From positions 2,005,243 through 2,069,242 of the forward strand of contig NC_057753.1 of assembly GCF_004010195.1 (NCBI RefSeq): 64,000 nucleotides of DNA, read 5' to 3'. The position numbers were made by a program, and so were the translations under genes. The notes under the pieces are model-generated. The model did no database searches, had not been told where the DNA came from, and saw only the letters and a list, made by a program, of their open reading frames with translations. This document shows positions 14,680-64,000 of the stretch, piece by piece (position 1 is the stretch's first letter; each line of letters begins with the position of its first letter). Origin of the DNA: Chiloscyllium plagiosum (Eukaryota).

Positions 14680-15626
14680 TTAACTCAAATTGCATTTTTT
14701 CATGATTTTAATTTGATCATTTTGAGAACATTTAAATAATTTTGTTATGGGAAATTTCAAAAGTTTCTTTAACTCCATCCTGAATTCACTTTGGGTGCCT
14801 GCATAGATAAATGGGTTAATGCAGGAACTCAAAAGCTGAAGCATAAAACCCCCTTCTAACAGAATGAAATTTGATTCATTGTAATTTGAACCTATGAAAT
14901 AGCTGAAGTTCGGAAATTGAACATGGAAGAATGTCAGGAAAACCAATAAATATGACAGGAGGAAATTGCCTGAGATGGCAAAGAGTAAAACCATGGACTT
15001 CTTCCGTTTTTCCATCTCTGGGTCGCTGTCATTCTCTCTATTGTTTCGTGTCTGAAGTCTCCAGCGGGTTCTACTGACCAAAAGAATGTGCCTGACAGTG
15101 AAGACATTGAGCAGTAAAATCAGAATGAATGGAAGGCAGGGGTTTAAAATTGTTATTATCCAGTCAAATGCAATCCAACTGGGTGACGTATAATATATTG
15201 GTTTGGTGCGGCAATACCAAGGTACACTGTTAGTTATAAATGAAGGCTCATACGCAAAATAAAATGGGATGTTTCTGATACAGTTCAGAATGCAGGTAGT
15301 TGCTATAACCACAGTTGCTACTCTCTCAGTACAATATTTCATTTTGAACTTCTGGCAACAAATGGAAATGAAGCGATCAAAGGTGAAAGTGACAGTTACC
15401 CAGACAGAGGAATCTCTGACTCCATAAAGTAACACAAGACTGGCACTGCAGACTGGGGTGATGGACATGAATATCATTTTGAAATAAATACCCACAATCC
15501 GGTTAAATATCACAGCTGTGATAATGACTAGGATATCCGTCACCACCATGGAAACCAGGTAACATGCAATGCATTTGGAAATACGGCATCTATTTCGTGA
15601 CAGGATAAAAAATATTGAAAGGTTTG
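14680..15626 (-). CDS. GPR139-like class A GPCR, gene 1, coding exon 2 (join with 17081-17150; 338 aa total)
   Basis: Acceptor ttgtttttcatag|CA AAC (phase 1, A-N-L-S). Motifs: TM2 MVVTDIL, TM3 SVWVTVTFTFDRF, PWYC, TM5 PCLPF, TM7 NPFIY. Open reading to TAA. 70+947 = 1017 nt. Confidence 0.93.
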
Positions 15627-16119
15627 CTATGAAAAACAAATAGAACAAGTGAATTGATGAAAATGACAAATGTAGATCTATCCACAGCAAGAAACAAACA
15701 GGCATTTGGGAATTCTCAAATTTCTGGAAGCAATTTCAAAGACAGAGAAGATTCCATATTTTGCACTGGAAATATTTACGTCCAACCACAGAAAAAAATC
15801 TTTAATTAGCAGCGAACTCTCAGCAGTATGTAACAGTGGCAAAAGGGATATAATCCAGATTTTGACGTTCTTTCTTTACCATGAAGTTGCAGGAAATTCA
15901 TTCTACTGCGCCCTTGGGAAATTTCTAAAGCAGAACAAAAGGAAACATTGTATGAAAAATTAGTAATTGGAAGTGATAATATCATATTGAAGAAGGAAAT
16001 GACCTTAAGGGAGCAGACAAAACTGACTGTAATGAAACGAGTTGAAAGTGAAGACTTGAGATGCTGGAGAGTCATAGTCGAATAGTTTTTAAAGTGACAA
16101 AGAGGAATGTTGAGGGAAA

Positions 16120-16380
16120 AGTGGAGGACTTGAGCTATGTGGAGTCTAATATTGTGGCGCTGGAAATACACAACACATCAGGCAGCATCCGAGAGGCAGG
16201 AGAGTCACCTCTTAAGGCATTATCCCTTCATCAGGAATGTTGGGGGCGGGCGGGGTTGCTGAACAGGGTGAGAGTTAAATCGGAGGGTGGGAGTGGGGCT
16301 GAATGCATGTAGCTGAGATGGCGATATGTCAACGCAGATGGGGGTGTTATTGTGAAAGGTCAGTGGGATCAGTGAATTGT
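16120..16380 (-). mobile_element. Degenerate Penelope-like terminal repeat in the gene 1 intron
   Basis: gctggaaatacacaac..tcaggcagcatccgag..gcaggagagtc..cccttcatcaggaat followed by a G-rich tract, as at 30-260. Confidence 0.75.
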
Positions 16381-17080
16381 AAAGAAATCCTCAGAATTTC
16401 ACACTGAAGCAGATATTCAGGAAGGGATCACTTCATGAGAAAAGAAATTAAATAGTCACTTCAATAAGTTACTTCATGTACAGTAATGCCGTTAGGAACA
16501 CAACAATGCAACATTTCTGACTTAAACCATAAAACGGGGCAAAATCATATTGTTATACTTTACAACATAAAGAAGTGATGCAACTGGAAAGGAGAAATGA
16601 CATTGTTAAGATGAAGAATATAAGATAAAAAGTCGTTGAAAATACCTTGTTTGGAAATGGGATATTAATGTCCTTGAAATGAAGGTGAGACAATAAAGGT
16701 CAAGTTGCCAACCACTTGCTGGACCATTGGGCTGCTCTTTCATTAGACACAGACTACTTGTTCACGTCTAAACTTAAGACACTTTGCTACAGGTGACGTG
16801 AGAGTGTGAAATGGAAACTCCTGCATGGTAACATCAGCCAATGCAACAATTGAATCAAAAGCCTATCACCCAGACAACTGAGCTAACTGACCCCTTGAAA
16901 ATTGCGTACCCCACTCGAAACTCTCGTTGAATTTGACCAAGTTGCCGGACTGAATACCAAAACGACTACGAGTTTCCTGGACACAGTATTGATAACTCGC
17001 AGAACGGGCAAACCGAGATGTTAAAATTATAGAAGACATTAAAAATCATTTCTATATAATAATTACCGAATATCCTTTAC

Positions 17081-17150
17081 CTGGAAACCCAATCGTTGCT
17101 AGGATTGGATAGTAAATCGCAAACAAGAGCCCTTTTGTTAATTCATGCAT
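17081..17150 (-). CDS. GPR139-like gene 1, coding exon 1 (MHELTKGLLFAIYYPILATIGFP)
   Basis: ATG at 17150, 23 codons + 1 nt, donor CCA G|gtaaag. The YYP..A.IG.P start of TM1 joins exon 2 in frame and parallels the other two genes. Confidence 0.9.
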
Positions 17151-18109: not shown

Positions 18110-20245
18110 TGTGACAATCCTCAACTCAATTTTCCTGATTTTCGCCTTGAAACCTTGATTCTCTTATTGATTCAAAATCTATTTATTTCACCGTTGAATA
18201 TATTTTGTGACATAGCCTCTGCAGCTCTCGGTAGGAATGAACTCCACAAAGTTACGATCAGAAGAAATTCTTATTTGTTTCTGTATTAAATGTGAAAACT
18301 TGTATTCTGAAGTTTTATCCTCTCATCCTAGACATTTGCACAAATCGAAACAACGTCTCAGAATCTGACCCATCAAACCCTCTACGAAGTATATATGTTT
18401 CAGTAAGTTCGTTTCTCTTTCCCCTAAACTCTGACATGCACAACTCAACCTACTTGACCTTTACTCATGAGAAAATTCCTCCATGTCTGGATTCAGTGAT
18501 TCTTCTCTAGTTTGCATCGAATACCATTAGTTCTTACATGAGCCTCAAGGACTAAAACTGTTCACATTAGGCTCAGTGTGGTCTAAGTGGTGTTTTGTGT
18601 AGCTTCCACAAGACTTCATTATATATGTATTCCATTCCATTGGACAAATACTAATATTCCTGTTACCATTCATATTTTATGTTGTGTGCACATTCATTTT
18701 GTGAGATATGCACGATGAACCTCAAATGTGGTTGTGCTGTAGTTTTTGTAGATATATCGCCTCTATTCTTTGCAAAACCCTTTTTTCCACTTCAAATTCC
18801 ATCTGTCAAATAATTGACAATCATACAGTCAAACAGTGCTACAGCAGGGATATAGGCCATTTGGCCCCAAGTGGTCCTTGCCAACCAACATAGCAGTCCA
18901 TACTAACACCATTTCCTTACACTTGGCCAACACACTTCTAATAATTTCCTATCCATATACTTGTCCAAATTACTTTTAAAAGTTGTTTGTGCATCTGCCT
19001 CAACTATTTTGGCTGGCAGCTTATTCCATATACGTTTTGCCATCTGTGTAAAAAAGTTGCCCCATAATTTCCCATTTATTCTTTCTCCGTGAACCTTAAA
19101 CTGATGCCCTTTAGCCCTCGATTCCCCAACCTTGGGAAAAAGACTGAATACATTCACCCTCTCCATGCCGCTCATGATCAGAAACACCTCTATAAGTCTT
19201 GCCAACCCCCAGTCTCCTACGCACTAAAGAAAAAAGTCTTAGCTTGTCAAGCCTCTCCCAGTATAACTGACAACTGAGATCAGGCAACATCCGTATAAAC
19301 GTCTGCTCATTTCCAGTTTAATAACATCCATCCTATAACAAGGTGACCAAAACTGAACGCAATACTCCAAATACAGCTTCAACAGCAACATCGAGTCTCA
19401 ACTTCTATAGTCAATGCCCCGAATAATGAAGAAGGGCCTGTTTCCACACGGTAAGTAATCTAGGTAATCTAATTCTAAAACTGAACGCAATACTCCAAAT
19501 ACAGCTTCAACAGCAACATCGAGTCTCAACTTCTATAGTCAATGCCCCGAATAATGAAGGCCAGTGTGCCCAAATCGTACTTCACTGCGCTGTATACCAG
19601 TGACTCCACTTTCAGAAAACTGTGAACCTGAACTCCAAGATCCTTCTGTTCACTTAAGGCCCTGACTTTCACCATGCAACTACCAGCTTGATTTGATTTT
19701 CCAAAATGCAAGATCTGACTGCTATATATATTAATCTCCATTTGCCATTTCTCGACCGACATCCCCAGCTGATCAAGGTCCTGCTGTAATTTCCAATAAC
19801 CTTGCCCACTGGATAGGATAACACATACTTTATGTTATTCAGTGAAGTTAGTAATTATGCATTGTATATTCTCATCTCATTCATTTATATAGACAATAAG
19901 AGTAATTGAGCCCAGCATCGACACCAGAGACACCCCACTGACCAGAGACCTCAAGTCCATCAAGCATCCACAGAATATCATCCTCTGCTTCCGACAATCA
20001 AGCCAATTTTGCATCCAATTTGCCAGCTCACCGTGGAGTCCATGCGATCTCACTTTCCAGAGCAGCCTAACATGTGGATCCTTATCAAATGCCTTACTGA
20101 AATCCATATAGATTACATCTACCTTTCTGTTCTTGTCAACCTTTCAGGTCACTTCATCAAAGAACTCTGACAAAAAAAAAATTCTAAAGCATGATCTCTC
20201 AAACTCAGGTCCATGCTGAGTACTCCGAATCAAATCCTGTCTTCA
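18110..20245 (-). mobile_element. Adjacent CR1 LINE fragments (RT and 3' ends)
   Basis: MDFSKAFDKDPHVRLLWKVRSHG..NWLDCRKQR, WQMEIN..LHFGKSN..EQKDLGVQVH, and SRAKGHQFKV..NFFTQ..WN. Confidence 0.88.
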
Positions 20246-20390: not shown

Positions 20391-21497
20391 ATGCTTCACT
20401 CACCAAAGTAATTTTGCTTCATAAAAATTTCCTGTTCTTTACGACTGCTGTCGGAGCAACAATGGAAATACATTCCCCAGCTGGAAATTGCACTGGCGCA
20501 TCGTGGTGAAAGGGTGTAATTCTAAACACGAGAACTTCAAATAAATTGGCTCTGCACAAATATACTTTGCTTATCAAAGCTACGTGTGAATTGTGGGCGT
20601 ATCTCGCCTGCGTTGGAGGCTACATTGCACCATTTCCTTTTGTTCCTTTTGCAGTGTGAATGCTGACTTTAAAAATTCAGAAGAGATGGGGAATACTCAG
20701 CAAAAAGGTGTGGACAGATAAATAGACTCGATGATTTATCTCGATGACATGTGTTACCCACCCAAGATATACCAAACAATTAAAGAATTTGATGGGTGGG
20801 CAGTGAGAATATGTACTGGTATAATTTATTTTTGACCCAGGTAGATAGAGTACCTTGGGGAGAATGTTGGAGATAGTGCTCCTGACGAAATGACAATGGA
20901 AGCTAAATTATACCATGCAGAGCTTTTTTTTGTTCAAACTGTGAAAGAAAATCATAAAACTCATTAAAAAACTGACAGATTTTCTTTTGAGATGAGGGTT
21001 TAAAGATTTGCAGAATCAGTCTAAATCAATGAAGTGTGGATGCAGAGTTAATTTTGTTTCATAAAACCTAAAAAAAAGTTTGTGGAGAGTATTTCAGGGT
21101 CATGAGATTATGTTTGAGATCTCCCTGTCGATACCTTGCTATCATTCCGTTTCAGAATCTCCTTCAAATCGAAAATTCTGTTGCCGTAACTGTAAGAGGG
21201 TTAGGCAATCAGTGGTGGTAATAGAAGGCCAACAAATTAGAAAGAAGGAAATTCCAAGGAGGAAGAATGGAAAACGTCACACAAGAAGTGAAAGATTTGA
21301 GAGAAGAAGAGTGATTTACTGTGATCGACTATGTTGAAAGGTTATTATTTAGAAATAATTTGATGGCTATTTTGCAGATAATGTTTATATCCTTATTAAC
21401 TATGATATCCAAACTTCATATTGGTGCCTTTGTCTCCCGACATTCTACCAACTTGAATAGTTTCTTTCCAGCAATTCTAACTCAACTACTACTGACG

Positions 21498-21805
21498 TTA
21501 GATTAGATTAGATTATTTACAGTGTGGAAACAGGCCCTTCGGCCCACAACGCCAACCTGACTCTCCGAAGAGGAACCGACCCAGACCCATTTCCCTCTGA
21601 CTAATGCACGTAACACAATGGGCAATTTAGCATGACCAATTCACTTGCACTGCGCATTTTGGACTGTGGGAGGAAACCAGAGCACCCAGAGGAAACCCAT
21701 TCAGACACGGGAGAATGTACAAACGCCCCACAGACAGTCACCCGAGGCTGGAATAGAACCTGGGATCCTGGTGCTGTGAGGCAGCAGTGCTCGCCACTGA
21801 GCCAT
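21498..21805 (-). mobile_element. V-SINE (HE1-like)
   Basis: V-core and (aatct)n tail, with A and B boxes on the minus strand. Confidence 0.9.
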
Positions 21806-22501
21806 GTTGAACACTTCTATCTAATCCCTCCAACACTTCTTCCCTCAGTAAAACAGCCTCATATTCTCCAAGATCTCTTCTTAATCTAAGTCAGTCATCA
21901 ACGGAATAATTTTTGCAAACGATTTGTGCATATTGTCTAACGTTTTCACATCCATAAAAAATCATGTTACCGGGTGTTTAAGAGTCCAGGAAATCTTACA
22001 TTGTGTTTATCGTTCAAACAAGCACCTATGGATAAGGTTCTGGATCTAGCAAATCTGTCCTATCGCATTTATGTATTTCGTACATATTCTCCGTGGTGGC
22101 ATATTCCCCTTAGCGTAATAGAGCCTTTCGCTCCCCGCCATGCCACTTTGTTGCAGGCAAAGTGTTCCTTTCTGCATGTCAGTGTTTCGTATTCTAGCTA
22201 CACAAATGTGCTACTCAAGACAAGCAAGGATTGAACAGACAGAGACACGTAAATAAACACACTGCAAGATATCACCAGGATAGATAACAAAAGATGCTCA
22301 GCAATCCAGATGCTGAGATGACGAGGTTGATCAGTTATGGGTTAGTTGGTTAAACACTTTCTGAATGACCATGTGACACTCACATGTCAGCCCAGCTTGA
22401 AGTTCCATGAGTTGTTTGATTTAATCCAGCAACATAAAACGGGCATCTGCAGTTTTTTTTGTCTCTAATCAAGGATACAAGACTGGCTGTTTAAAAATTT
22501 T

Positions 22502-23511
22502 CTATTTCTATCTCAGGCGACCGAATCAACACGGACATCTACTACAAACCGACCGACTCCCACAGCTACCTGGACTACACCTCCTCCCATCCTGCCCCCT
22601 GTAAAAACGCCATCCCATTCTCCCAATTCCTTCGACTCCGCCGCATCTGCTCCCAGGAGGACCAGTTCCAAAAATGCACATCCCAGATGGCCTCCTTCTT
22701 CAAGGACCGCAATTTCCCCCCCAACGTGGTCGACAATGCCCTCCACAGCATCTCCTCCACTTCCCGCTCCTCCGCCCTTGAGCCCCGCCCCTCCAACCGC
22801 CACCAGGACAGAACCCCACTGGTCCTCACCTACCACCCCACCAATCTCCATGTACAGCGCATCATCCGCCGTCACTTCCGCCACCTCCAAACAGACCCAG
22901 CACCAAGGATATATTTCCCTCCCCACCCCTATCAGCTTTCCGTAGAGACCACTCCCTCCGCCACTCCCTTGTCAGATCCACACCCCCCACCGACCCAACC
23001 ACCACTCCCGGCACCTTCCCTTGCAACCGCAGGAGGTGCAACACTTGCGCCCACACCTCCCCCCTCACCTCCCTCCAAGGCCCCAAAGGAAACTTCCATA
23101 TCCGCCACAGATTCACCTGCACCTCCACCCACATCATCTACTGCATCCGCTGCAGCCGGTGTGGCCTCCTCTATATTGGGGAGACAGGCCGCCTACTAGC
23201 GGAGCGATTCAGAGAGCACCTCTGGGCCACCCGGACGAACCAACCCAACCAACCTGTGGCACAGCATTTCAACTCCCCCTCCCACTCCACCGAGGATATG
23301 CAGGTCATTGGACTCATCCACCGCCAAACCACAACAACCCGACGGTCGGAGGAGGAGCGTCTTACCTTCCGACTGGGAACCCCCCAACCTTATCTTAGCC
23401 TGCTGGACCAACTTTCCTCATTCCTGAAGAAGGGCTAATGCCCGAAACGTCGATTCTCCTGTTCCCTAGATGCTGCCTGACCTGCTGCGCTTTTCCAGCA
23501 ACACATTTCCA
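22502..23511 (+). mobile_element. 5'-truncated Penelope-like element with a 14-bp TSD
   Basis: TDIYYKPTDSHSYLDYTSSHP..KNAIPFSQFLRLRRICS (RT thumb) and FTCTSTHIIYCIRCSRCGLLYIGETGRLLAERFREH (GIY-YIG). TSD tgtttaaaaatttt at 22488-22501 and 23512-23525. Confidence 0.93.
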
Positions 23512-24173
23512 TGTTTAAAAATTTTACCTTAGTTGACCAGGTTTATTGCAAGCCTTGAGGTGATTAAAGTAGCGCAGTCAATAAGACATTCATATACGAC
23601 TGGATATGTGTGGTATATGGAGGTTATGAATTCAATTTCTACCGTGAAACGCTTTTATTATTGTGGATCAGCGAGGATAAGAACATCGATTGTACTATAA
23701 GATAATAAGCAATCTTGACAAATAACTGTCTTAATTTGAAAGGACCAATTTATGTCGAAAGATCAGTAATTTGTTTCGAGAGAATGTCACAAGAATCCTG
23801 CACTCGTTAAGTTCTGGAAAAGACGTTTAAGCTTGTTTCACATTCTTAATTTTCTGCGGAATCGCAAATGAAATGAAAACATCTAAACATACGAAATTTA
23901 ACCGATATTAAAATTTTATAAACAGAAATTGCAAGAAGGATAGAAATCTTGCAAGAAGAGCCTGGGACTATTACAATATTTTTAATACGTATTGGTGTGA
24001 ACTGATATATTTTCTGGTGAAAATGATAGGAGATTGCATGTCCCTTAATTTGTAGGACTGGATCGACGTCAAAGGTAACTCACAGTGTCGGTACGCAGAA
24101 AATAGAAACACAGCTATCATAAGAAAGAGAATGAAGCATTGGTGTTAATTCTAATTGGATTGAACGGAAAAGC

Positions 24174-24640: not shown

Positions 24641-26914
24641 TTAGCATTTTACACCCATGTTTTGCTTGTATTACCAGAGCTGTAAGTTTATACCCTTCAG
24701 AAATAATAAGTCAGAGCTGTCTTTCCACATTTATGCATTGTTTTACATATTCTCCATGGTGTCACGTCCACCTCAGCGTGATAGAGCCTTCAGCTCCCTG
24801 CTGTGCCACTCTGTTGCAGGTAAACTGTTCCTTTCTGCATGTTAATGTTCTTATTCCAGTTACACAACTGTGCTACTCAAGACAAGGAATAGACGGAGAC
24901 ATGCAAACAAACAAGCCACGGAATATCGCCAGGATAGATAACAAAAGGTGCTCAGCAATCCTGACGCTGGGATGACATGGTTGATCAGTTATTGGTTAGT
25001 TGGTTAAAGCACCTTCAAAAAGAACATATGATGCTTACATGTCAGCACAGCGCTACGTTCCAAGAGTATTTTGATTTAGACCAGCAACATTGAATGGGCA
25101 TCTGCAGTTTTTTTGTCACCAATCAAGGTTACAAGAATGGCTGCTTAAAATATTTCCCTTACTTAACGAAGTCTATTGCAAGCCTTGAGGTGCTCAGAGT
25201 AGCGCAGTCAATAAGACATCCTTCTTTGACTGGATGTATCTGGTATATGGAGGGTATGAATTCAATTTTTACCGTGAAAAACTTCTTTAATGTGGATCAG
25301 CGAGGATCGGAACATCTGTTGCATTACAGGATAATAAACAATCTTGAAAAATAACTGTCTTAATTTGAAGAGACCAGTTCATGTCAGAAAATGAATGATT
25401 TGTTCCGAGAGAATGTCACAAGGATCCTGCATTCGTTAAGTTCTGGAAAAGACTTTTAAGCTTGTTTCACATTTTCAAATTCCTTCAGGATCACAATGGA
25501 AATGAAAACGTCTAAACGTATAACATTTAACCGACATTATCATGTTATGGACACAAATTGCAAGAAGGAAAGAAATCTTGCAGGAAGAGCGAGGACCTTT
25601 ACAATATTTTCAAAATATATTTATGTGAACTGACCTATTTTCTGGTGAAAATGTTAGTTGATTGCATATCCCTTGATTTGTAGGACTGGAACGACGACAA
25701 AGATAACTCACAGCGTGGGTACACAGAAAGTAGAAATACTGCTATCATAAGAAAGAGAATGAAGCATTGGTATTAATTCTAATTGGAATAAATGGAAAAG
25801 CTGTGTTTTAATATATTATTTTCCTGGACAGTATTAGAATATATTGCTGCTTTGTAATTGTTTGGGTTGGCATTTGACACCCATGTTTTGCTTGTATTAC
25901 CAGAGTTTCAAGTTTATACCCTTCAGAAGTAATGAGTCAGAACCGAACCCTTCACTTGAGAAGAGAAGAGCATTTGCCTGATGATATCCTTTCGAGTCTG
26001 ACACAAATTTCCAAAAGCGATACTTGAGAGGATAAAATCTAAAAGAACTGCGGATGTTGTAAATCAGGAAACAAAATAAAGGTAGAGTCACTCGACCCAA
26101 AATGTTAAATCTGATTTCTCTGCACAAATGCTACCAGACCTGCTGACTTCCACAACAATTTCTGTTTTTGTTTCACTATTTGGGAAACATGTCGAAGTGA
26201 TAGGATAAATATCAGGATAGCTGACGGGGTATGACAGCTGATCCCCATTATCACAAACTAACCTTTTTGAGCTAAGTAGCCTGATTCAGCCTTTGCATGT
26301 GTTAGTATTCTAGAAAATGCAGCATTTGACCCCAAATCCAAAGCATTTTAGGCGGGAGAATGCTGTCAATTGCAAGTTTGGTTTTCTAAATTTCCATCCA
26401 AAACAGCTCTGCTCCTCAGGATATTGTTTCGTCGACATTATTACTTCAGTGATTTGGCTGTCAGCACTCCGAAACAAAGAAGGTCTTTGGTGCACATTAC
26501 ATTGGGTTCAATCAAGCGCTGCAGATAGTGCCGTGATGGAATTTTATGTACCTGCATTTTGACTTACACCACTTGACATCTCTGAATTTGGACTCTGGAA
26601 TTGCTCGTTTATTGCTGGTTAGAGATTCAAGGTGAATACCTGCATATTTTCTGAGAGTTCCACTAAATGTGCCTCATTTTTAGTCCATTAAATTGAGCTA
26701 CAAGTTTTTTTTTTCTGCTATGCTTACTGTCTCTCCTCTTACTTCTGCTTACGCTAATGCAATCAAAAGCGTAGAATTGGATATATGTTTCTCCGTTCCT
26801 TACTGCAAGTTATTCATAGATTTTGGAACAAGATATGTTTACTCATTGAGGACAGCACAATATAAGGGAAAGTTAATGTGTTTGTGGCTGTCCGTTCATA
26901 AATTTTAAACAGTT

Positions 26915-38700: not shown

Positions 38701-39605
38701 TTATTTTTTGTACAATTTTGAGATTAGACTCAAAGGACATACCACCATAATATATAACTGCTGTCTGAACTTGCGTTGTGTTACTGCATAAATAAATGAG
38801 TTTGTGCAGCAGCTTAAAAGCTGAAGCATATTTCCACTTTCCTTAAGAACAAATTTGGGGTCGTTAAAACCATTAATGGCATAATTCTTTGCAAATCTAT
38901 ACCAAAGAAACTCCACAACATATGTCATCCACAACAATATGAAAGTGCCAGATATCGCAAATAATAAGATGATAGACTTTCTTCGGCTCTCCATCTCTTG
39001 ATCACTCTTATTTTCTCCATTGCTTTTGGCATGGAATCTCTTACAGGCTCTACTTGCCACCAGAATGTGTCGAACGGTCATGGCATTAAACAAAACAATC
39101 AGAAAGAACGGGAGACAAGGAGTTACAACCCGGTCAAACCAATCAAATGTTGTCCATAGAGGTGAAGTATAGCGTATACTCTTCTGTCTACAATACCACG
39201 GCATGTTATCAATCATGTAAATTGGTTCATGCATGAAATACCAAGGGATATTAATTGAGAAAGCTAGCACACAGACAATTCCTATTACAACAGATGCTGT
39301 TCTTTCAGTGCAATATTTTGTTTTCAGTTTCTGACAACAAATGGCCACAAGTCTATCAAATGTGAAAGTCACAGTTAACCATATAGAGCTGTCTCTGCAT
39401 GCATAAATTAATGCAATACTGAAACTGCACACTGGAGTAATGAACATGAAACTACCTGGGAAATAAATAGCCGGAATTCGATTTAACATCACTGCAGTGA
39501 TAATGACCAAGAGATCCGTCACTGCCATAAACACGAGGTATCTAGTGATACATTTGGAGAGTCCACACCTTCCTCTTGACAGGATTATAATCGCCACTAA
39601 ATTAA
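38701..39605 (-). CDS. GPR139-like class A GPCR, gene 2, coding exon 2 (join with 43725-43794; 324 aa total)
   Basis: Acceptor tttcattctctttcag|TT AAT (V-N-L). Motifs MAVTDLL, SIWLTVTFTFDRL, PWYC, PCLPF and NSFIY. Open to TAA. 70+905 = 975 nt. Confidence 0.93.
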
Positions 39606-39714
39606 CTGAAAGAGAATGAAACCATGTTGCACATATTTTATTTACAGCCAACGAAATATGCTAAGTAAACCGAGCAAAGATTCACTTTGATTTAATTAGA
39701 AATATATTTGGAGA

Positions 39715-40130
39715 ATGACAGTCATGCAGCACAGAAACTGACTCCATGATCCCACATGTCTAGACTGACTATGTTCCCAACTAAATTATTACTCCGGGCC
39801 TGCACTTCGCCCATATCACTCAAAACGTTTCCTACTCCTGAACATATCTCGTCTTTTAACTCTATACACACTTTCTCTAGCAGTTGATTCCACACACATT
39901 GCCTCTCATTTTCATTTTCGATCTTTCTCCTCTCACCAGAAAATATGCCCCCATAGAATTGAAAAAAACCATGTTAGGAAGAAAAGACTTGTAATTCACT
40001 TTACCTCTGCCCCTCATGATTTCATAAGCCTCCATAAATTCACCCCTATATCTCCTGCACTCTAATGGAACATTCCCAGCCTTTACAGTCCATTTTTGTA
40101 ACTGAAACCCTGCATTCTCAGCAATGAATA
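39715..40130 (-). mobile_element. Degraded CR1 3' fragment in the gene 2 intron
   Basis: LECRRYRGEFMEAYEIMRGRGKVN (CR1 RRLRGDLIE.YKIM.G motif). Confidence 0.75.
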
Positions 40131-43100
40131 TCATAGCATACTATTAGAGAGTAAGGATATGCACTGTAACTCAGATCAAATGTCAAAACTTTGCTACTTG
40201 ACATGATAGAAACAGATGCCCCCCATTACGTATAGCTGACACTCTCCCCAGGCATCTGGAGAACGGATGACATTGATAAAATAGAAATACATCACAAAAA
40301 CTGAGAGGGAAAGAAAGGCAATTAAAATCAACTAACATTTCCAAGTTATTGAAAGAGCTGACCGCGCATTTTTAAATTATATACATCGTCATAATTTCCT
40401 GAAAAATCAAGGTAATGAATTGAAATAGAAACAAAGCAACTATACATTTGTTGAGCAAAAAAATAAACCTAATTACAAACCACACCAGAATTAACGTTAT
40501 GAACAATTTCACTGTTGTTTTCCAGTCTCTGACTGCTTTTCAATATGTTAGAAAAATATTAAGCTAACAGATCCAACAGGTTGTAAGTATAATACAGATT
40601 TCAATGTAAAATAGAAACATATAATTTAATTTTGACTGAACAGGAATAGTTACACGAATACCATAAACTAATTACCTTAAATAGTTTATTTAAACTCGTT
40701 TGGATTTCTGCCATTGATGTTTCTCATTCCATGTAATTTCCTAACGTGGAATTCTATCTCAAATAAGCTGTCTGCCATTTCAATTACTTTTTAAAAATGT
40801 GTTTCATTCTTGTACAACCCTCAGACTTTAGTCAATCAACACATTGGCACCACACCATTGTTCTAAATACCTTACAAAATATTCAGTTGTAATATATATT
40901 TAAGAGTCAATGTGTGATATTGTAAATCTATTTAGTTAATGCCTTAGATTTTAGTAAAGTAATATGCAGTTGCTGCATTCCAGGGGTTGGAAATGACAAT
41001 GAATGTTGGAGTGGATTTTAACGCACAGATGTTTTGGACTATGTATCCAGAATAGCACGATCTGAACTCAGGTCATAAGAAATGCTATATATAGTAAATG
41101 GAAGAGCAGATCAAAAAACATTGAAGTTTTCTGAACAATCAGCAATGGAATCGCAGTTCGGCAGCCAATTCAAACCATTAAATTGTGTTCTGCTTTGCAG
41201 TCCCAAATGATTGAATGAAGCTGAGCCTTTGTCAATATGAAATAAAAAGTGGACCTCGCATACATATGCGAAATCCAAAGGTCAGTTTTCTTGCTTGTGC
41301 CAACTCACATCAACACAGTGATCGGCTCTAGATTCAGAAGAAACATTAAAGGTCATTGCAGTTTTGAGCAGCAAGACTGGGCAGGCCTATCTTGTGGTGA
41401 TTAGTGAGAAAATTGCCAAATGTGCAGGAAAAGTGCGACATCAAGTAAATGAATACGGGCAACGATGGGGATGAGCCGAATGGATACGAATTAACACAGG
41501 TTAACACAACAAAAGGAAGAACTGAAGAAATTGCTGGAGAACATCATTTGTCTGCTAGCATATGTTAACAAAAAAAGTTAAAGTTTTGAGTTATAGACGC
41601 TTCGTCAGAACTGAAGAAGGGAAGAACCTATGAGATACATTTTGTAACATGGATTTCGCAGCTTGCTATGAACGGTGATGTGTTGTGAGTTATATGCTAT
41701 TGCAGTTTTTAAATTATGGTTTTGCTTCAAATCAAACCACTGCATGTTTATGTTTGACGTCTTTTCATCAATTTCGGCATCAGTGGAAATCAACAATGTC
41801 GTTATTAATTATTCAATCATAAAAGTTAACAAATCAGAACCTGAGCTAGGAGGGGCATAATTCTGCAATTCAGTCGATCCACTAAATATAGCACTTAACT
41901 CTTGAGGAAAATAAATCATTCTGAAAAGTTGGAAAAATACCATTCTCAAACAAATGTCTGTCGAAGGCAGATTTCGTTTTAGTTTCTGATGATTTCAATT
42001 CTGAGTTAGTCAGAGTCTCCCATCCATATACGTGATTTTATCTCGCTTTATTTGGCGGTTCTTACATATGGTGTTAGATTGGTTTCAGAAATGTCCTGCA
42101 TTCAATATGTCATAGCGATAATTCCGCTATAAACACAATATACTGAATAAGATTAAAGGAAATGGAAGGACCATTAGGAATATTCGAAGAAGAGTAGTGC
42201 AATCAACTTCTCGCACCTCTCAAACAGTGTGGTTATGGCTAGTTTGTGGTCAACCTCCATGTACCCGCTTTTGGCCGTTATCCCTTAATAACTTCTCTCA
42301 ACAAGTAAAAATATGTCCCAGGTTTAAAATTAATAACGGATCCAGCATACATTTTCTTTTTAGGATATATTCCAAACACTGACTACCTTCTGCTTCCAAA
42401 CGCTTCTTCTGAACAGTGTGAGCCTAATTTACAGACTATGTTCACAAGTTGTAAAATCCCCAAACAGTGCAAATATTCAATGTTTACGTAACCTGCACTT
42501 TCTTCCAAGGACTTTATGCTTTGCAATTTGGTCACATCTAACATGCACATTCACACTATCGATATCCCTCCATTCATGAACACTGACCAATTGTTGAGCA
42601 AAAAAAAAACAAAAATATTATTTATGTGCAGAAGTAGGTCACGTCTGAAGTGTATTCGACATTTCAAGAAGTATGTGATTTATTTGTTTGAGTTTCGAAT
42701 TCCCACGTGCACTCTGCGATCTCACCATCTAAAGAGAATCTGAGTAATTGATGCTTCAATATTCGCAAATCAAAAGTTTTTTTTGGTATCATTTGAGCTT
42801 AAAATATTATGGAACAGAAGAGATTAATGATCACAACGAATTAGTGCTGGCAGAACTCAAGACAAAAAGAACATTCAAACTCAAAATTTGGAACACTTAA
42901 TCTGTCAATCCAAATACTTTTTCTAAATTTTTTGGAGTATTGAGTCTTTGCAACCCTTTCAGACAGGACACTATCAAATTGCTTTCACTCTCGGTTGAAC
43001 ATTTTTTCTTTCTTCTCAATTCCACTCCGAAATTTCATTCAAATACCTTACCAATAAGCATTATCCTCTTTTAAGGGAATATGTCATTGTTATGCATCCC

Positions 43101-43724
43101 ATTCCAGCTTGACAATATTGAGTACCTCTAAATTAAATCTTCATTCAGTTCGCTGGTTCAATTCACCCGTATATTCAATGCTACCATGAAGATTTTTGTG
43201 AAAACATTCTTATTGTATTATCCCTAATGATACTTGTTCGATTACATTTTTCTGCATCCACTGAAATGTGCTACGATGACAGAGAATATAATAGCAACAT
43301 TAAATCCTTTCAGTACTTGTACCTCAATCGTTTGAATGAAGTAATTAATTGACTGTCTTTCTTCCATGGATTCATTCCTCCTTATTTTCTCGCGCCATAT
43401 TCTTATACAGTAAACACTACAATTCTGGTAAATTTGTGGTCATGTTGAATAAAACATAATCCGAAAACAACAGTTTTCGGGAATTACACAGCGGAAAGAT
43501 AAATGTAACGTCGAGTTTGATCAGCGTTTTGTTTGCAACCATAGTATTACAGAAATACAAACATATAAACCTGGATGACATCAGTCGGTCTGGTATCACT
43601 TTTGGAGAAAGAAACACTGAACGCGGTGTTGCTCCTCATCAGAACCCTGACATTTACGTTGCTTTTTTAAATATAATCCTTTACCCAATTACATCATGAA
43701 TCATTTTTTTTTCCATTACTTTAC

Positions 43725-43794
43725 CTGGAATAGCGATAACTGCAAGTGCAGTATAGTAAATGGCATAAGCAGGACCTCTTGGTGGGGCATGCAT
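43725..43794 (-). CDS. GPR139-like gene 2, coding exon 1 (MHAPPRGPAYAIYYTALAVIAIP)
   Basis: ATG at 43794, 23 codons + 1 nt, donor CCA G|gtaaag. Same length and phase as gene 1 exon 1. Intron is 39606-43724. Confidence 0.88.
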
Positions 43795-45067
43795 CTTCTT
43801 TGTGAACCGGTTAAAGTTTCTGATGTGTTCAATTCAATTTATCAACAGATCCTATTATACCTTAGGCGAGCACACCTGAGTCACATGAGATAAAATCACT
43901 ATCGCCGTTAATTACAGTCATAGGGGAATTTTTAAAAAATGAATTAATCATCATCACATTTACTTGCAGTCATAAATAGTTAGATTTTATTATACCAATG
44001 TGAATAGTGATTACAATTGTTGAACAAATAAAATGGCTTACATAATTAATAAAGTGAAGTTGGCTACATTCACGATTGCAGTCTCCCCCTTTCTTTTAGC
44101 TTTCGAGAAATAAAATAGAGAAAAGGAGATTTTAAGGACAGTTAATGTTTTCTGTATTCAAGCGTTAAACGAGGCTTCATCTCCCCTTTTTACCTATGTA
44201 TGACGCTAATCGCCTGTGAAATGTTTTCTGTTGCTCACTGTCTGAAGCGGGCAAGCAGCCCAATAAATCTTCTCTAGTAGGAAGTAAGGAAGTGAAAGAT
44301 CCACATAATAGGCATGCAATCTGCACTAGCCAACCCTGGGAGTTAAACAGCGTGTTCCTTTGAGGATTCATGACAAGGGTTAGAAGTTTGTCTTTCAGAT
44401 TTATTCAGCAGCAACCTTATACATAACTTATGCTGAATGATACTTCTTAGTTTACGCTGCAACAGATACCATTATGTAGATTTGACTGATAGAGTATGAA
44501 GAACAAAAATGAAATGGCAGTGTTTTAATAAATGCCTGTCAGTAGGTACAGTGTGGATCTGTTATTAACAGTGATGTTGTGCGCCATGCACGTTCATGGA
44601 TTAGAGACCAGAGATGGCAAGGAGAACAATTAATTCCTAATTATTACTAAATAATTTGCCAACTCCTGATGAGATCAAACGATCAGAATATAAACTGAAT
44701 GTGAAACTTCGTTGGACAATTGAACATCAGTGCTGAGTCCGAGTTACAAAGCGGTCAGTCTGAGCTTGCATAAGTTCACAAGAGGATGAAATGACTTGCC
44801 CAACTATTCAACAAAATGCCTGTCAAAGCTGCATGCGTGCATGACGGCATCAAGACCAATTTCAGCACAAAGTCATTATGGAATTTAATGCACGTTGTCA
44901 CAGTAAGGTATTAAAAATTATGTAATGAAAGATCAGCAAGGAGCGGGCAGAAGAAATCGAGGTCAAGCGATTAGACCTGAACATTCAAGATGTGCTTCGA
45001 TTTGAGAAGAACTGTCCAATCCTTCACCTCATTCTTCATCAATTCTCTTACTCCGTTATCAGCAGGA

Positions 45068-53393: not shown

Positions 53394-55084
53394 ATATAAG
53401 TTTGCTCGCTGAGCGGCAAGGTTCGTTTTCAGATGTTTCATCGCCATACTAGGGAACATCATCAGTGAGTCTCTGATAAAGCAATGGTGTTAGTGACCCG
53501 TTTTCGATTGATGTGTTTAGGTTTCCTTGGTTGGGATGTAATTTCCTATGGTCGACTGGGACAACACATCCGTCCTAGGACAAACTAAACAGAGACATGC
53601 ATGAAAATTTCGAGAAGCATGGCATTCCAACTGGAACTCCACCCACAAGCACATCGACTTTTACCACGTTGTGAGGAAAAGAATAGGAAATGACATCACC
53701 ACAGGAAACAAGGTTGATTTGGTGTATATGGATTTCAGCAAAGCGTTCGATAAGGTTCTCCACAGTAGGCTATTGTACAAAATACGGAGGAATGGGATTG
53801 TGGGAGATATAGCAGTTTGGATCAGTAATTGGCTTGCTGAAAGAAGACAGAGGGTGTTGATTGACGGGAAATGTTCATCCTGGCGTCCAGTTACTAGTGG
53901 AGTACCGCAAGGGTCGGTGTTGTGTCCACTGCTGTTCGTCATTTTTATAAATGGCTTCGATGAGGGTGTAGAAGGGTGGGTTAGTAAATTTGCAGACGAC
54001 ACTAAGGTAGGTGGAGTTGTAGACAGTGACGTTGGATGTTGTAGGTTACAGAGAGACATAGATAAGCTGCAGAGCTGGGCAGAGATGTGGCAAATGGAAT
54101 TTAATGTGGATAAGTGTGAGGTGATTCACTTTGGTTGGAGAAACCGGAATGCAAAGTATTGGGCTAATGGTAAGACTCTTGATAGTATAGATGAGCAGAG
54201 AGATCTCGGTGCCCAGATACACAGATCCTTAAAAGTTGCCACGCAGGTTAACAGGGTTGTTAAGAAGGCACACAGTGTTTTAGCTTTTATTAATAGAGGG
54301 ATTGAGTTCCGGAAACATGAGGTTATGCTTCATCTCTCCGAAACTCTGGTGCGGCCGCACTTGGAGTATTGTGTACCGTTCTGGTCACCACATTATAAGA
54401 AGGATATGGAAGCTTTGGAAAGGGTGCAGAGGAGATTTACTGGATGTTGCCTGGTATGGAGGGGAGGTGTTACGAGGAAAGGCTGAGGGACTTGAGGCCG
54501 TTTTCGTTGGAGAGATGAAGGTTGAGAGGTGACTTAATAGAGACATGTAAGATAATCAGAGGGGTAGATAGTGTGGAAAGGGAGAGCCTTTTTCCAAGTA
54601 TGGTGACAGCTAACACAAGAGGGCATAGCCTTAAATTGAGGGGTGATAGATATAGGACAGATGTTAGAGGTAGTTTCTTTACTCAGAAAGTAGTAAGGGT
54701 ATGGAATGCTTTGCCTGCAACGGTAGTAGATTCGCCAACTTTAAGTGCATTTAAGTCGTCATTGGACAAGAATATGGATATACATGGAATAGTGTAGGTT
54801 AGATGGACTTCATATTGGTATGACTGGTCGGCGCAACATTGAGGGCCGAAGGGCCTGTACTGTCCTGTAATGTTCTATGTTCTATGAAACAACATCATAA
54901 CAGGAAATGACAGCACCAACCTAAGGAAACCAAGCACATAAATAGAGAGCATGTCACTAACACCAATGTTTCACCGAATGGCTCACTGATGACGTTGCAT
55001 GATGAAACGTCTGAAAATGAAACTTCCAGTTCAGCGGACAAAACATACAACCAGACCACAACCTGAGCTACAAATCTCAAAATC
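53394..55084. mobile_element. Penelope-like insertion with inverted terminal repeat, split by a younger CR1
   Basis: Minus-strand repeat at 53394-53545. Plus-strand GIY-YIG C-terminus DWDNTSVLGQTKQRHA*KFREAWHS at 53553-53704. Plus-strand repeat at 54893-55084. Confidence 0.85.
53712..54885 (+). mobile_element. Younger CR1 LINE RT/3' fragment
   Basis: VDLVYMDFSKAFDKV..GVPQGSVLCP..KFADDTKVGG..RPHLEYC. TSD gaaacaa at 53705-53711 and 54886-54892. Confidence 0.95.
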
Positions 55085-57200: not shown

Positions 57201-57501
57201 CCACAGTGGTTAGCACTGCTGCCTCACAGCGCCTGAGACCCGGGTTCAATTCCCGCCTCAGGCGACTGACTGTGTGGAGTTTGGACGTTCTCCCCGTGTC
57301 TACATGGGTTTCCTCCGGGTGCTCCGGTTTCCTCCCACATTCCAAAGATGTGCAGGTCAGGTGAATTGGCCATGCTAAATTGCCCGTAGTGTTAGGTAAG
57401 GGCAAAATGTAGGGGTATGGGTGGGTTGCGCTTCGGCGGGTCGGTGTGGACTTGTTGGGCTGAAGGACCTGTTTCCATACTGTAATGTAATCTAATCTAA
57501 T
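57201..57501 (+). mobile_element. V-SINE (HE1-like), slightly 5'-truncated
   Basis: Nearly identical to 48984-49298. Confidence 0.93.
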
Positions 57502-59249
57502 CCAACCTTCTGGAAATATTGAAAAGTTTCCTTGTTCACTAGGTTTAAGTTGTTAATAACTTTCAGGACTAAATGACAAACTCCTGTGGATTTTCCAGTC
57601 CAAAACATAACTGCAATTAATGACAACTAATTGATGTCAATCAGATACTTTTATATCAATATTGCTACTGTGACTTTTATTTCATCAACTCCAGCGTTTT
57701 TCTCACCTCGGCGTTTGGGCATAATTTATTAAATAATTTTCTCCTTATTCATCACAATAATTATATTACCGTCATCAACATTCTGGTACCTCAGCAAGAA
57801 AAAAAATGATACGGGATATCTTGGTGAAGATTTTCAAGCAATAACATTATTTGTCCTAGTGGCTATTAACTGCTTACCAAATTATTATTTCTAAAATGCT
57901 GTATGCTACCGGGTTAATCTCAGCACCCCCTGGTGCTGCTGTTAAAATTTCATTGTTGGCTAGCGAAGATTTAATATTATTTTTCGGGAACTGTGACGAA
58001 ATTGTGTGAAGTGATTAAGTTTCAAATACAATAAAATGTCAATCGATAAAGAACTGCATAACTTATGACATTTCTCAAGATATAAGTGACCAATCACAAA
58101 TGAAGGTCGACAGTGAATTACAATTGACGATCAGTCAGCCTGTTGATTTTGCAGAAAAGAAAAATACTGTTGATGTTTAAAATTTAAAATGACAGCAGGA
58201 AATGCTGCACACGCTCAATGTCGTCCTGAATTCAATGGAGACAAAATTGGTTTACGTTTCAGGTCTGTGAACAAGTCACAAGCGGCAGGGAGTGGAGGTT
58301 GGGCGGAGATTGGAAGACTGGTAGTGTAGATGACAGTTGTCACATTGTGAAAGCAATGGGAACAATCAGACACAATAGGTGTACCTGCATGAGGTGTGAA
58401 CAGATACCTTCAATGCGAAGTAAACCATAGAACAACGAGAAAAGAAAACCAAATTACAGAAACACCTATTATAATGGGAAAGAAATCAAATCACACAGTT
58501 CTTGATTGTCAACTCCTCCAGGCTGAAAATTGCCTCCTGTTACTCACTATTGCAAGTGAAACGTCATATACCTGCTAACTTTATTTATTCTCTTTCCAGG
58601 AGGACAACTCAGCTCGAAAGGTCACTTGCACTCCCCTCCCCTCCCTGGAAGCATATCGATGCACATTGGACTCTCACACCTACAGTCAGCGCGGGCAAAG
58701 TGTCAGGAAGCAGCTGGCTTTTAGATTATCTGTTTCTATTAATCCATGACTAGATGACAGAAAAAATCAGTGTATCATGTGGCTTAGAATTTCTGGCATT
58801 CACATATACCTGCAATAATTGTTCTTCTACATGTTGAAGGTATGTACTTGGGAACACTGTTTAACTTTGCTCCAGCTCTAGGCACATTAATTCCCTCAAC
58901 CTTGCCTTTCTCGTTTACCTATCTCCATCTGTTATTTGTAAGTGCTCACTGGTTCCCTTCTGTGAAGGACAGCAATGAAATATTTTATTATATAATGACA
59001 ATCCATCAGCTTTTAACGTCAATTTGTTCCTATCGTGCTAACTCCACGCATTACCAAATTCATTTCCATGGTCAAGAAACTAGTTTGCATTTAAGTGGAT
59101 TCCATGTCACTGAGTTTTACTTTCTTTTGTTATATATTAGGTTAACAGGAAATTCGAGAGGATGAATTTCAGTCAGGTAAACTGGATGTGAAAGTTATGT
59201 CACAAAGAATTATTTTAGAAACTCTCTTTTTCTTTGTGAAAATGTTAGA

Positions 59250-61053: not shown

Positions 61054-61499
61054 CAGGGAGCAGCGCAGATCAAGCCTGGTTAACATAAAAGATGAATTGA
61101 GGGATAACAGAAACGACTTGCAAGTAATTTGATGTCACTTAGAACTTCGGGAATCGTCATAATATCCTATTTTATACAGCTCTCATATCCCAGAACATGA
61201 AAAGGTTTGATGTGAAATTATGTATAACATAATTGGCGAGACCAGACATACCTTTGTTTCAGCACATTTCCCTTCTTAAATCACTTCTTGTTCTTTTAAT
61301 TGCATATGTCTGTTTTAAAAAGTACTGGAGTATCTCCGCAGACTGCTCATTACAATACAAAATACAAAGTAAGAGATTTCAAGAACACAGTCAAAGCAAT
61401 ATGACATGCATAAACAAAAATAAAAATAAAGCAACGGATAGAATATATACTGAAGTCAAAATGCATTTTACAGTTATTTGTGTCATTTTACTGTGATCA

Positions 61500-62407
61500 T
61501 TATTTAAGCCACTGCACAACTAGTGTCAGGGGAAATCTAGCCAATTTTTTTAACTGCTCTCTGAATTTACCTTGGGTGCCTGCATAAATAAATGGGTTGA
61601 TGCAGGAACTCAAAAGCTGAAGCATAAACCCGCCTTCTTCAAGAATAAAATTTGATTCCTTGTAATTTGAACCTGAGAAATAACTCACATTTGCAAATTG
61701 AACATAGAGGAAAGTCAGTAGAACCAACAAATACGACAGGAGGAAACTGCCCGAGATAGCAAAGAGCAAAACGATTGATTTCTTCCGTTTTTCCATCTCT
61801 GGGTCACTCTGATTCTCTCTATTGCTCGAAGAAATGAGCCGCCTGCGGGCACGAGTGGCCAACAAAATGTGCCTGACGGTAAACGCATTGAGCAGCAAAA
61901 TAAGAAGGAATGGAAGGCAAGGGTTTAAAATTACGATTATCCAGTCAAATGCAATCCACGAGGGTGAGGCATAATATATTGATTTGAGGCTGCAATACCA
62001 AGGTATGTTGTTGATGATAAAAGAAGGTTCAAAAATAAAGTACAAGGGGATGTTTCTGAGACAGCTTAGAATGCAGGCTGTTGATATAATCATAGTTGCA
62101 ACTTTCTCAGTGCAATATTTCATTTTCAGCTTCTGGCAACAAATGGCAATGTATCGATCCAATGTGAAAGCGACAGTTACCCAAACAGAAGCATCTCTGA
62201 CTCCATAAATTAACATAAGACTGGCACTGCAGACTGAGGTGATAGCCAGGAACGTCATTGGGAAATAAATTCCCACAATTCGGTTTAATATCACAGCTGT
62301 GATAATGACCAGGATATCCGTGACCGCCATGGATACCAGGTAATATGTGATACACTTGGAAAGACCGCACCTCTCTCGTGACAGGATGACAATCACTGAA
62401 AGATTAG
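61500..62407 (-). CDS. GPR139-like class A GPCR, gene 3, coding exon 2 (close paralog of gene 1)
   Basis: Acceptor ctcctttttcctag|CT AAT (A-N-L-S). Motifs MAVTDIL, SVWVTVAFTLDRY, PWYC, PCLPF and NPFIY. Stops at TAA TGA. Confidence 0.93.
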
Positions 62408-63963
62408 CTAGGAAAAAGGAGACATGATGAGTGAATACATGATGAGAGCAAATAAAGAAGTAACCAAAGAAAGACTGAAAGAGACGTCTGAGCATCCTCA
62501 ACTTTCTGGAAGCAATTGCAAAGTGAGAAAAGAGTGTACATTTTGCACTAAATTATTTCTATTAAACAACATAAAAAAGGTCTCTAGTTGTCAGCATAAC
62601 CAGACAATTATGTAATAGTGGATAAAGGGATAAATTCTGGTTTCCAAATTCTTTCTTTATGACTCAGTTGCAGGAAATTCATTCTGTGGTGCTTTGTGAC
62701 AATTTCAAGCGAGGAACAAAAGCGAAAGTAGTCTGAAAGATTGATAAGTTGAAGAAGCAGCAAATTATATCGACCAAGCAAATGATCAAAAATAAGTGGA
62801 TGATGTAGAGTATAAGAAATTTTGACGATTTTCACATTTAGGTAGATGTCCAGGAAGAGATAATTTAAAAACAAAATGCATTTGTCCTCTGAAAGAAATG
62901 AAGCCTGGAATTGCATCTGATAATGATCTTAAACTAAAGCAACATTGTTTTGTGACAGAGAATAAAGTAACATAATAGCTGAAGTCCAAGTTAAGCTCTG
63001 TTGACAATGCTCTCAGTTTTGATTCCATCGATATTGGCTTCAAATCTTACTGCAAGACGTCAGTACTGACTTTGTATTGCATTGCCCAGGCTGTTGCATT
63101 CGTGCTAAAACAATAAACGGAAGATGTGAGGAATAAGACGCGAATGCAAAGACTGACTGAGCTATCAAGACGCTGCGGTTAATAGTCCATCACAAACAGC
63201 GAATAGTGTTCCATCCTCTGTCAATAGCTGTGCAGATAAAAAGTAAGTGATGCATTTGCAACGTGACAATTGTTTGACAATTGGAGGTCTCAAAACACAA
63301 TCAACGTGTAATTAAATATTCATTTTCGTGAGATGATGCACTTCCAATAATAGCGCTAAGAACACAACAGAACAGCATTTCTGACTTCTGATATCAATAA
63401 ACTAGTAGAAAAGAGGAAGAATATATTGCTCGAGGATGAACAGTGCACTAACAATATAAACAACTATTCAATTGAAAAGGAGAAATTACAGTGTTAAAGT
63501 GGAAAAAACTACATTAATTGAAAACACCTTGTTCGTAAAAATGGAACGTCATTGCCCTAAAACGGTAAGTGAAACATTCTAATCCAATGAAAGTAAAATT
63601 TTCACAATCTTGCTGAATCATAGCGTTGCACTCTCGTTAGACATAGATGACTACTGGTGGTTACTGTGCCGCAGGCGAGATGAAATCTCGAAAAAGACAG
63701 TCCTTCGTGGTAACCTCAAACAGTGCGGGAATAGAAACTAAAACCTGCTATCCAGGCGACTGAGCTAACTGACTCCTTCAAAATTACAAAGCCCAAATAG
63801 ACAATCTCGTTGAATCTGGCCATGTTGACCGACAGATTACCAAAATGATTCTGAATACATCAGGACCGCATTATTGAAAACTGAGAGACAGGGTAAACTG
63901 AAATGCGAAAATTCAAGAAGTTATTGCAATCATGACTGTTTAATAAAAAACAGTATCCTTTAC

Positions 63964-64000
63964 CCGGAACCCCAATAGCTGCTAGGATTGGATAGTAAAT
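63964..64000 (-). CDS. GPR139-like gene 3, coding exon 1, partial (..IYYPILAAIGVP); start codon beyond the window
   Basis: Donor CCG G|gtaaaggata. Homologous to 17081-17117, and the adjacent intron matches the gene 1 intron. Confidence 0.88.

Follow-up and report, generated by a model that had tools for sequence, protein, structure and literature searches.

We analysed a stretch of 64,000 nucleotides from Chiloscyllium plagiosum (contig NC_057753.1 of assembly GCF_004010195.1, positions 2,005,243 to 2,069,242 of the forward strand; hereafter the window), which carries three seven-transmembrane (7TM) receptor genes, named here genes 1, 2 and 3. They are ordinary members of a many-copy family of cartilaginous fishes, and the interest lies in the whole family. 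Three open frames of the minus strand matched Pfam 7tm_1 above cut-off, with E values of 8e-16, 1e-20 and 2e-20. These frames, found first, are the second coding exons; each gene consists of two coding exons, the short first one ending in a phase-1 GT donor, with a phase-1 GT..AG intron within the first transmembrane helix (TM1), an identical donor hexamer and no internal stop. GPR139 presumably has the same two-exon layout with an intron in TM1. No fourth receptor copy or receptor pseudogene was found within the window by tBLASTn. A preliminary description of this DNA had reported three intact 7TM genes on one strand, and the Pfam matches, intact splice sites and uninterrupted frames bear it out.

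Gene 1 encodes a protein of 338 residues. Its coding exon 1 (17081..17150, minus strand, as are all the exons and introns given here) contains the ATG, the short N-terminus and the first half of TM1, in a frame open to the phase-1 GT donor. The intron (15627..17080; 1454 bases, GT..AG) shares three blocks, 66-72% alike, with the intron of gene 3, and coding exon 2 (14680..15626) runs from the second half of TM1 to the stop and is the faster evolving of the gene 1/3 pair. The C-terminal tail of gene 1 (14680-14720, minus strand) reaches about 13 residues beyond that of gene 3, and most family members have 323-327 residues. Gene 2, encoding 324 residues, comprises coding exon 1 at 43725..43794, located by a donor-and-frame scan, an intron at 39606..43724 (4119 bases, GT..AG) without BLAST similarity to the introns of genes 1 and 3, and coding exon 2 at 38701..39605; the protein is 87% identical to a whale shark protein. 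In gene 3, coding exon 1 (63964..64000) is cut by the window end, its 5' part lying past it, and is followed by an intron at 62408..63963 (1556 bases, GT..AG) and coding exon 2 at 61500..62407, giving a protein of at least 314 residues, 84% identical to a whale shark protein. A putative TATA-like element (43855..43859, minus strand), a consensus match only, lies 65 bases 5' of the gene 2 ATG, and a one-letter variant of it 57 bases 5' of the gene 1 ATG. The proximal upstream regions of these two genes align no better than shuffled sequences (score 20 versus a shuffled mean of 21).

The motifs PWYC and PCLPF are present in all three genes and the DRY site reads DRF, DRL and DRY in genes 1, 2 and 3, as first described. 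The identities formerly estimated by eye agree with the counted values, 236/314 (75.2%) for genes 1 and 3, 172/324 (53.1%) for genes 1 and 2 and 180/312 (57.7%) for genes 2 and 3. The very short N-terminus holds for genes 1 and 2, while that of gene 3 lies outside the window and cannot be read there. The CWxP motif, said to be lacking, has lost P6.50 in all three genes, although W6.48 is retained in gene 2; the corresponding site of human GPR139 is LWAP and has no cysteine. Residues N1.50, D2.50, R3.50, P5.50 and Y7.53 are found in all three genes and W4.50 is replaced by cysteine. Modelled with AlphaFold, exon 2 of gene 2 (predicted local distance difference test score, pLDDT, of 90) has seven helices and a beta-hairpin in extracellular loop 2 (ECL2). 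The 7tm_1 domain and the seven modelled helices indicate that the window genes encode class A (rhodopsin-like) G-protein-coupled receptors (GPCRs). Across 293 rows of the family alignment, R3.50 and N5.58 never vary, N7.49 and Y7.53 each occur in 99%, C3.25 is at 98%, an ECL2 cysteine is present in 290 rows and P6.50 in 15%; three acidic residues are widely shared, D3.37 (79%), D5.39 (71%) and E7.36 (80%).

Relation to GPR139 and GPR142

Human GPR139 was the best sequence match in the PDB of both gene 2 (E 2e-8) and the family profile (E 2e-33), the next match to the profile being the neurotensin receptor (E 5e-26). Identity to human GPR139 is about 27%, counted on the HMMER match line, versus 31-34% to amphibian and coelacanth orphan receptors, and the relatives nearer than GPR139 are non-mammalian orphans of salamander, coelacanth, teleosts, bichir and amphioxus. 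A fold search with the gene 2 model returned peptide receptors as top matches, with GPR139 at rank 25; GPR139 is not singled out and the fold search therefore gives no support to GPR139 orthology.

Two papers place the contacts of GPR139 with L-Trp and L-Phe at F109, H187, W241 and N271 (PMC5430874), and those with synthetic agonists at E108, R244 and N271 (PMC12775434). At the positions of F109, H187, W241 and N271, mapped through the PDB sequence matches of gene 2 and of the family profile, gene 2 reads Y, D, W and N, and genes 1 and 3 read Y, I, Y and F; at R244 and E108, gene 2 has Y and I, and genes 1 and 3 have V, then L or I. Because these binding residues are mostly replaced, amino-acid sensing, as proposed in the preliminary description, cannot be transferred from GPR139.

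The salamander relative was itself searched with, and 25 of 1675 candidates were returned: 20 amphibian clusters, one sturgeon protein (46% identity) and four elasmobranch proteins (32-33%). None of these 25 listed matches came from an amniote, a lungfish or a teleost. Each of the 20 amphibian clusters has a different species at its head, and no named species has more than one; this single copy is only apparent, since the search depends on shared words. The receptor is also present in Xenopus tropicalis. In frogs, salamanders and caecilians, it carries S at 1.50 and N at 2.50, and the sturgeon relative falls in the same group. The amphibian/sturgeon gene joins the family with supports of 100/99 in a tree of 42 rows (LG+G4) and 92/99 in one of 25 rows (mixture model). 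A family clade that excludes the amphibian gene received 0.10 in FastTree and 86/85 in IQ-TREE and was left undecided by the mixture model; the gene may be sister to the entire family or may lie among its early branches. N1.50 lies at residue 23-28 in all 24 amphibian, fish, coelacanth and amphioxus rows starting with Met. The short N-terminus is ancestral, because it is common to the amphioxus, coelacanth, teleost and amphibian relatives.

Since the trees were built without true GPR139 or GPR142 sequences, the case against ordinary 1:1 orthology with known receptors rests on the identity of about 27%, the replaced pocket residues and the closer amphibian and coelacanth relatives. On these grounds this candidate was rejected, and the window genes are probably orthologues of neither GPR139 nor GPR142. 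Judged from sequence, human GPR139 appears to be only the nearest characterised relative, and the nearest bony-vertebrate relative an apparently single-copy amphibian/sturgeon orphan. The label GPR139-like, given at first, is thus right as to the nearest characterised receptor, but the family groups with the amphibian/sturgeon orphan.

Family size, duplication and pocket variation

Copy numbers were drawn from the proteins of other species. As the best 120 matches were listed per search, every cluster tally from them is a floor, though a handful of clusters may be duplicate models of the same gene. With gene 2, 2395 of 3239 candidates passed E 1e-3, and among the matches listed for it 119 of 120 were named from sharks, rays or skates; genes 1 and 3 gave 1914 matches among 8000 scored. 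Most family matches are automatically named 'probable GPR139'. The horn shark has at least 105 distinct clusters at 90% identity, of which 74 lie on a single sequence of 59.5 Mb; the whale shark has at least 15, of which 10 lie on a single sequence of 11.7 Mb. For each of the three window genes, the best match in whale shark is on this 11.7-Mb sequence, so the local cluster is conserved. Identity of the window genes to whale and zebra shark proteins is 78-87%. A separate protein search gave 114 representatives at 50% identity (E up to 1e-30); of 18 representatives whose species was checked, 16 came from elasmobranchs and one from the chimaera Callorhinchus milii.

In the LG+G4 tree, gene 2 pairs with a whale shark protein (support 100/99). 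Horn shark genes form clades of their own, with 10-11 members and supports above 0.9. The family was correctly described beforehand as clustered, many-copy and subject to birth and death, and it is far from having a few copies. It is wider than the shark system then envisaged, as rays and skates have members too and at least one gene comes from a chimaera. Because the Callorhinchus milii protein is nested inside the family in the trees, the sequences suggest, through this one protein, that the expansion began before the chimaera/elasmobranch split.

Genes 1 and 3 share a duplication footprint (14356..15973, minus strand, 75% alike to 61129-62754) which extends into the intron and the 3' flank. 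As intron and flank sequences are shared too, the two genes arose by duplication at the DNA level. They group with two whale shark proteins and one zebra shark protein (support 100/100, LG+G4). The two whale shark proteins of this clade and the gene 2 match lie together on one sequence; with supports of only 73/23 and 76/36, the tree fits a duplication shared with the whale shark as well as a parallel one. Gene 1 is accelerated relative to gene 3: with a sevengill shark as outgroup it has 42 unique changes versus 14 (p 0.0002), and two other outgroups give p 0.03 and 0.05. It also deviates at 16 of the 106 columns conserved in the family, which places it at the 97th percentile among 245 members. 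Its extra changes, 25 synonymous and 23 non-synonymous, show no non-synonymous enrichment. Gene 1 is a duplicate of gene 3 that drifts faster and whose pocket has changed; its acceleration fits a new function or early decay alike.

The Nei-Gojobori ratio of non-synonymous to synonymous rates (dN/dS) is 0.33 for genes 1 and 3 (95% bootstrap 0.25-0.47), 0.22 for genes 2 and 3 (0.13-0.31) and 0.18 for genes 1 and 2, the last two near saturation. These values are not near 1 and point to purifying selection. None of the sequence results that the preliminary description had named against itself was obtained: neither plain 1:1 orthology, nor a low copy number, nor a neutral dN/dS. For gene 2, three read runs were identified as DNA by even intron cover and the lack of a spliced joint; they showed 0 differing letters in the exons, where covered, and 14 differences in the intron, although coverage has gaps and the runs may include the window's own source.

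We then compared variation in the ligand pocket, at 26 generic class A positions fixed before computing, with that of other TM positions. Among 105 horn shark paralogues, the mean entropy is 1.54 bits in the pocket versus 1.02 at 58 other outer-half TM positions (p 0.002), and 0.62 at 80 inner-half TM positions. Among 20 amphibian orthologues the order is reversed, with 0.04 in the pocket versus 0.39 in the outer half and 0.48 in the inner half. At a matched identity of 70-80%, 2464 horn shark paralogue pairs differ at 45% of positions in the pocket and 21% elsewhere in the TM helices, versus 1.5% and 20% in 78 amphibian orthologue pairs. Across all paralogues taken together, the diversification claimed earlier is strongest in the pocket, the variable positions being 3.28, 3.29, 3.32, 3.36, 4.60, 5.42, 5.43, 6.51, 7.35 and 7.39, though independent sister pairs (see below) do not show it.

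Between species, gene 3 and its whale shark match differ at 0/26 pocket and 20/136 other TM positions, gene 2 and its match at 1/26 and 11/109, and gene 1 and its match at 6/26 and 20/138. Genes 2 and 3 would therefore represent old specificities kept in the whale shark. In 16 cross-species pairs 10.6% of pocket and 13.9% of other TM positions differ (p 0.07).

Surrounding DNA

The genes lie inside decayed repeat DNA, as had been noticed, and self-similar repeats cover at least 20,011 of the 52,953 intergenic bases. An assembly gap of 500 N (12003-12502) is located 2.2 kb 3' of gene 1. Decayed reverse transcriptase fragments of the long interspersed nuclear element type are found at 53605-54886 (plus strand), 45595-46752 (minus) and 4472-5371 (plus), the longest frame matching RVT_1 with E 1e-19. 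A broken element at 22495-23438 (plus) has a weak GIY-YIG match (E 1e-4) and an inverted copy, 86% alike, at 356-1064; we take it to resemble the tail of a Penelope-type retroelement. Repeats of about 300 bases, similar to short interspersed nuclear elements (SINEs), are present at 2413-2719, 21497-21804, 45086-45361, 48992-49298 and 57202-57506, two copies being inverted and 94% alike. An exact direct duplication of 83 bases (19349-19431 and 19477-19559) flanks a short SINE-like piece, and reflects a recent event or an assembly artefact. A non-coding local duplication of about 1.1 kb (22055-24173 and 24717-25801; 80-84% alike) is split by later insertions.

Proposed role and comparison with known systems

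A fixed signalling side, with R3.50, N5.58, N7.49 and Y7.53 at 99-100%, together with a pocket that varies among paralogues would be the pattern of a many-ligand repertoire, and we hold it likely that the family is a functional repertoire of this kind. In the best explanation, cartilaginous fishes have long possessed a very large set of orphan class A GPCRs from the GPR139/GPR142/MIP-FMRFamide receptor branch. Tandem duplication would have produced it from an ancestral gene of which amphibians and sturgeon apparently retain a single copy. Each subfamily would have its own ligand, a small polar or charged molecule or a short peptide, which the shared acidic residues D3.37, D5.39 and E7.36 would hold, while the variable positions listed above would tune the choice of ligand. 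The modelled ECL2 beta-hairpin and the peptide-receptor fold matches may count in favour of this scheme. The receptors would be used in a chemosensory epithelium, either in the nose or in cells dispersed over gill, mouth, skin or gut, and coupling to Gq is a guess by analogy with GPR139.

The most likely role is the sensing of outside chemicals, to which we give a little less than an even chance. For the catshark, passages of a sensory genome paper count only 8 olfactory receptor (OR) and OR-like genes, a handful of ORA and TAAR genes and 32 V2R genes (PMC11979771). These counts being small, a family of at least 105 variants would outnumber the known catshark olfactory receptors. More doubtful, and offered tentatively, is the complete proposal that cartilaginous fishes run a separate chemosensory family of at least a hundred genes, derived from a GPR139-related peptide-receptor branch before the shark/chimaera split, and that bony vertebrates kept one copy or lost it.

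Several observations weigh against a chemosensory repertoire. The 26 positions of the pocket were taken from a generic class A list and not from a ligand-bound structure, and the horn shark paralogue pairs are non-independent and were sampled as nearest relatives of the window genes. No pocket excess was found in 25 same-species sister pairs, with 78/650 (12.0%) pocket versus 365/3355 (10.9%) other TM differences (p 0.41); choosing sister pairs by tree support may favour pairs with shared pocket residues. The window paralogue pairs are without clear pocket excess as well (genes 2 and 3, 11/26 versus 56/136), and no dN/dS above 1 was shown. No RNA run was listed as containing gene 2 exon 2, and in a single-cell RNA subsample (about 2/100 of one run, tissue not stated), no reads fell on either gene 2 exon. 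The catshark nose is described, in a passage of the same paper, as V2R-dominated (PMC11979771). The short N-terminus, taken in the preliminary description as a sign of a chemoreceptor, is an ancestral trait and so gives that role no support. Finally, pocket variability is just as compatible with an immune or a somatosensory repertoire.

Formyl peptide receptors and MRGPRs perform immune sensing in mammals, and receptors on leukocytes or barrier cells could, in the same way, recognise peptides and metabolites derived from microbes or damage. The pocket diversity and the clustering would be the same, the modelled fold resembles peptide receptors, and the sampled copy number differs widely between species, with biased sampling. 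In addition, a passage of the whale shark paper reports that MAS1 and its relatives are lacking in cartilaginous fishes (PMC8455134), which leaves such a role open. Nevertheless, the pockets of genes 2 and 3, kept across species, fit stable ligands better than an arms race, and no dN/dS above 1 was shown; we regard it as unlikely, but as a serious contender.

The copies might instead be receptors for endogenous peptides or metabolites, used in a cell-type-specific manner in sensory ganglia, brain or gut endocrine cells. GPR139 is described in part of one paper as a highly conserved brain receptor (PMC6367278), the branch includes invertebrate neuropeptide receptors according to a passage of another (PMC8514136), and the invariant amphibian pocket is as for one endogenous ligand. 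However, more than 100 pocket variants per species would be far beyond the usual endogenous need, and most GPR139 binding residues are replaced, so that we consider internal signalling quite unlikely.

It is very unlikely that the family is mostly genomic drift, that is, a duplication-prone cluster in slow-evolving, repeat-rich genomes with many copies redundant or being lost. The acceleration of gene 1, with its 16 altered conserved columns, the single RNA subsample empty of gene 2 exon reads and the recent sister pairs, free of pocket excess, would fit such a process. Three frames and their splice sites are nevertheless intact amid decayed elements, dN/dS stays at 0.18-0.33, the extra changes of gene 1 are as often synonymous as non-synonymous and pockets are kept between species; the contrast between exons and intron of gene 2 in the three DNA runs points the same way, weakly given the gapped coverage. 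Lastly, that these are GPR139/GPR142 orthologues or recent duplicates sensing Trp and Phe is scarcely credible, as the database names and the PDB matches are set against the lower identity to GPR139 than to amphibian and coelacanth orphans, a C3.25 and ECL2 cysteine in 98-99% of the family of which C3.25 is not seen in the aligned GPR139, and the absence of R6.51 and E3.32 from all three genes.

The genes are already in public annotations under automatic names, while the family itself is undescribed in the literature searched. No description of its expansion was found there, most subscription papers and some supplements, which may hide a prior mention, lying outside the search. GPR139 is absent from the main text of the catshark sensory genome paper and from the zebra shark preprint, and 12 of 24 whale shark supplements, when searched, held no match to the family. 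At least 105 variants in one shark under one automatic name conflict with the picture of few GPCRs and few ORs, as given in passages of the whale shark paper, which states a relative paucity of GPCRs in cartilaginous fishes (PMC8455134), and of the catshark paper (PMC11979771). If the chemosensory proposal is true, the family would be a further vertebrate chemoreceptor family, and would help to explain why sharks can sense so many chemicals despite their small set of known receptors. Its apparently single-copy amphibian relative, through Xenopus tropicalis, offers a laboratory route to the ancestral ligand.

Non-mammalian orphan clades close to GPR139/142 have been named before. GPR210A/B are set beside GPR139/142 in coelacanth, gar and fishes in a passage of Rinne et al. 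2019 (PMC6504862), where 'shark' or 'cartilag' does not occur, and 'NMOGPR' and 'Orphan 139-like' are tabulated as non-mammalian orphans in part of another paper (PMC5207463). No expansion is described in either passage. Orphan proteins of coelacanth, teleosts and bichir, perhaps of this kind but not matched to the gene identifiers of these papers, are the next relatives of the family and lie on separate branches beside it.

With human GPR139 and GPR142 (PDB 7VUG and 9M42), orphan receptors that L-Trp and L-Phe activate, the window genes share the class A fold, and P4.59, W5.40 and the TM7 pattern align; gene 2 also keeps W6.48 and the N271 equivalent. They differ from human GPR139 by the low identity, by a C3.25-ECL2 cysteine pair with an ECL2 hairpin, by the lack in all three genes of the R244 and E108 equivalents (R6.51 and E3.32) and, in genes 1 and 3, by matching exactly 0 of 4 mutagenesis-defined residues, the H187 equivalent being D or I in the window genes; the family is also many-copy, whereas GPR139 is single. 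The amphibian/sturgeon orphan, annotated 'probable GPR139' (for example XP_069092602.1 of Pleurodeles waltl), has the same short N-terminus, C3.25, ECL2 cysteine and D3.49, but its pocket is near-invariant and differs from the window genes at 22-24 of 26 positions.

With the OR, TAAR, V1R/ORA and V2R repertoires, the family has in common tandem clusters, birth and death, a variable pocket and a conserved signalling side, whereas its ancestry is other and the window genes match only 7tm_1 in Pfam. It would work like a chemoreceptor repertoire; it belongs to no named chemoreceptor family. Nematode srw is an invertebrate chemoreceptor expansion from the peptide-receptor branch, and weak Srw marks from Pfam are found on look-alike clusters.

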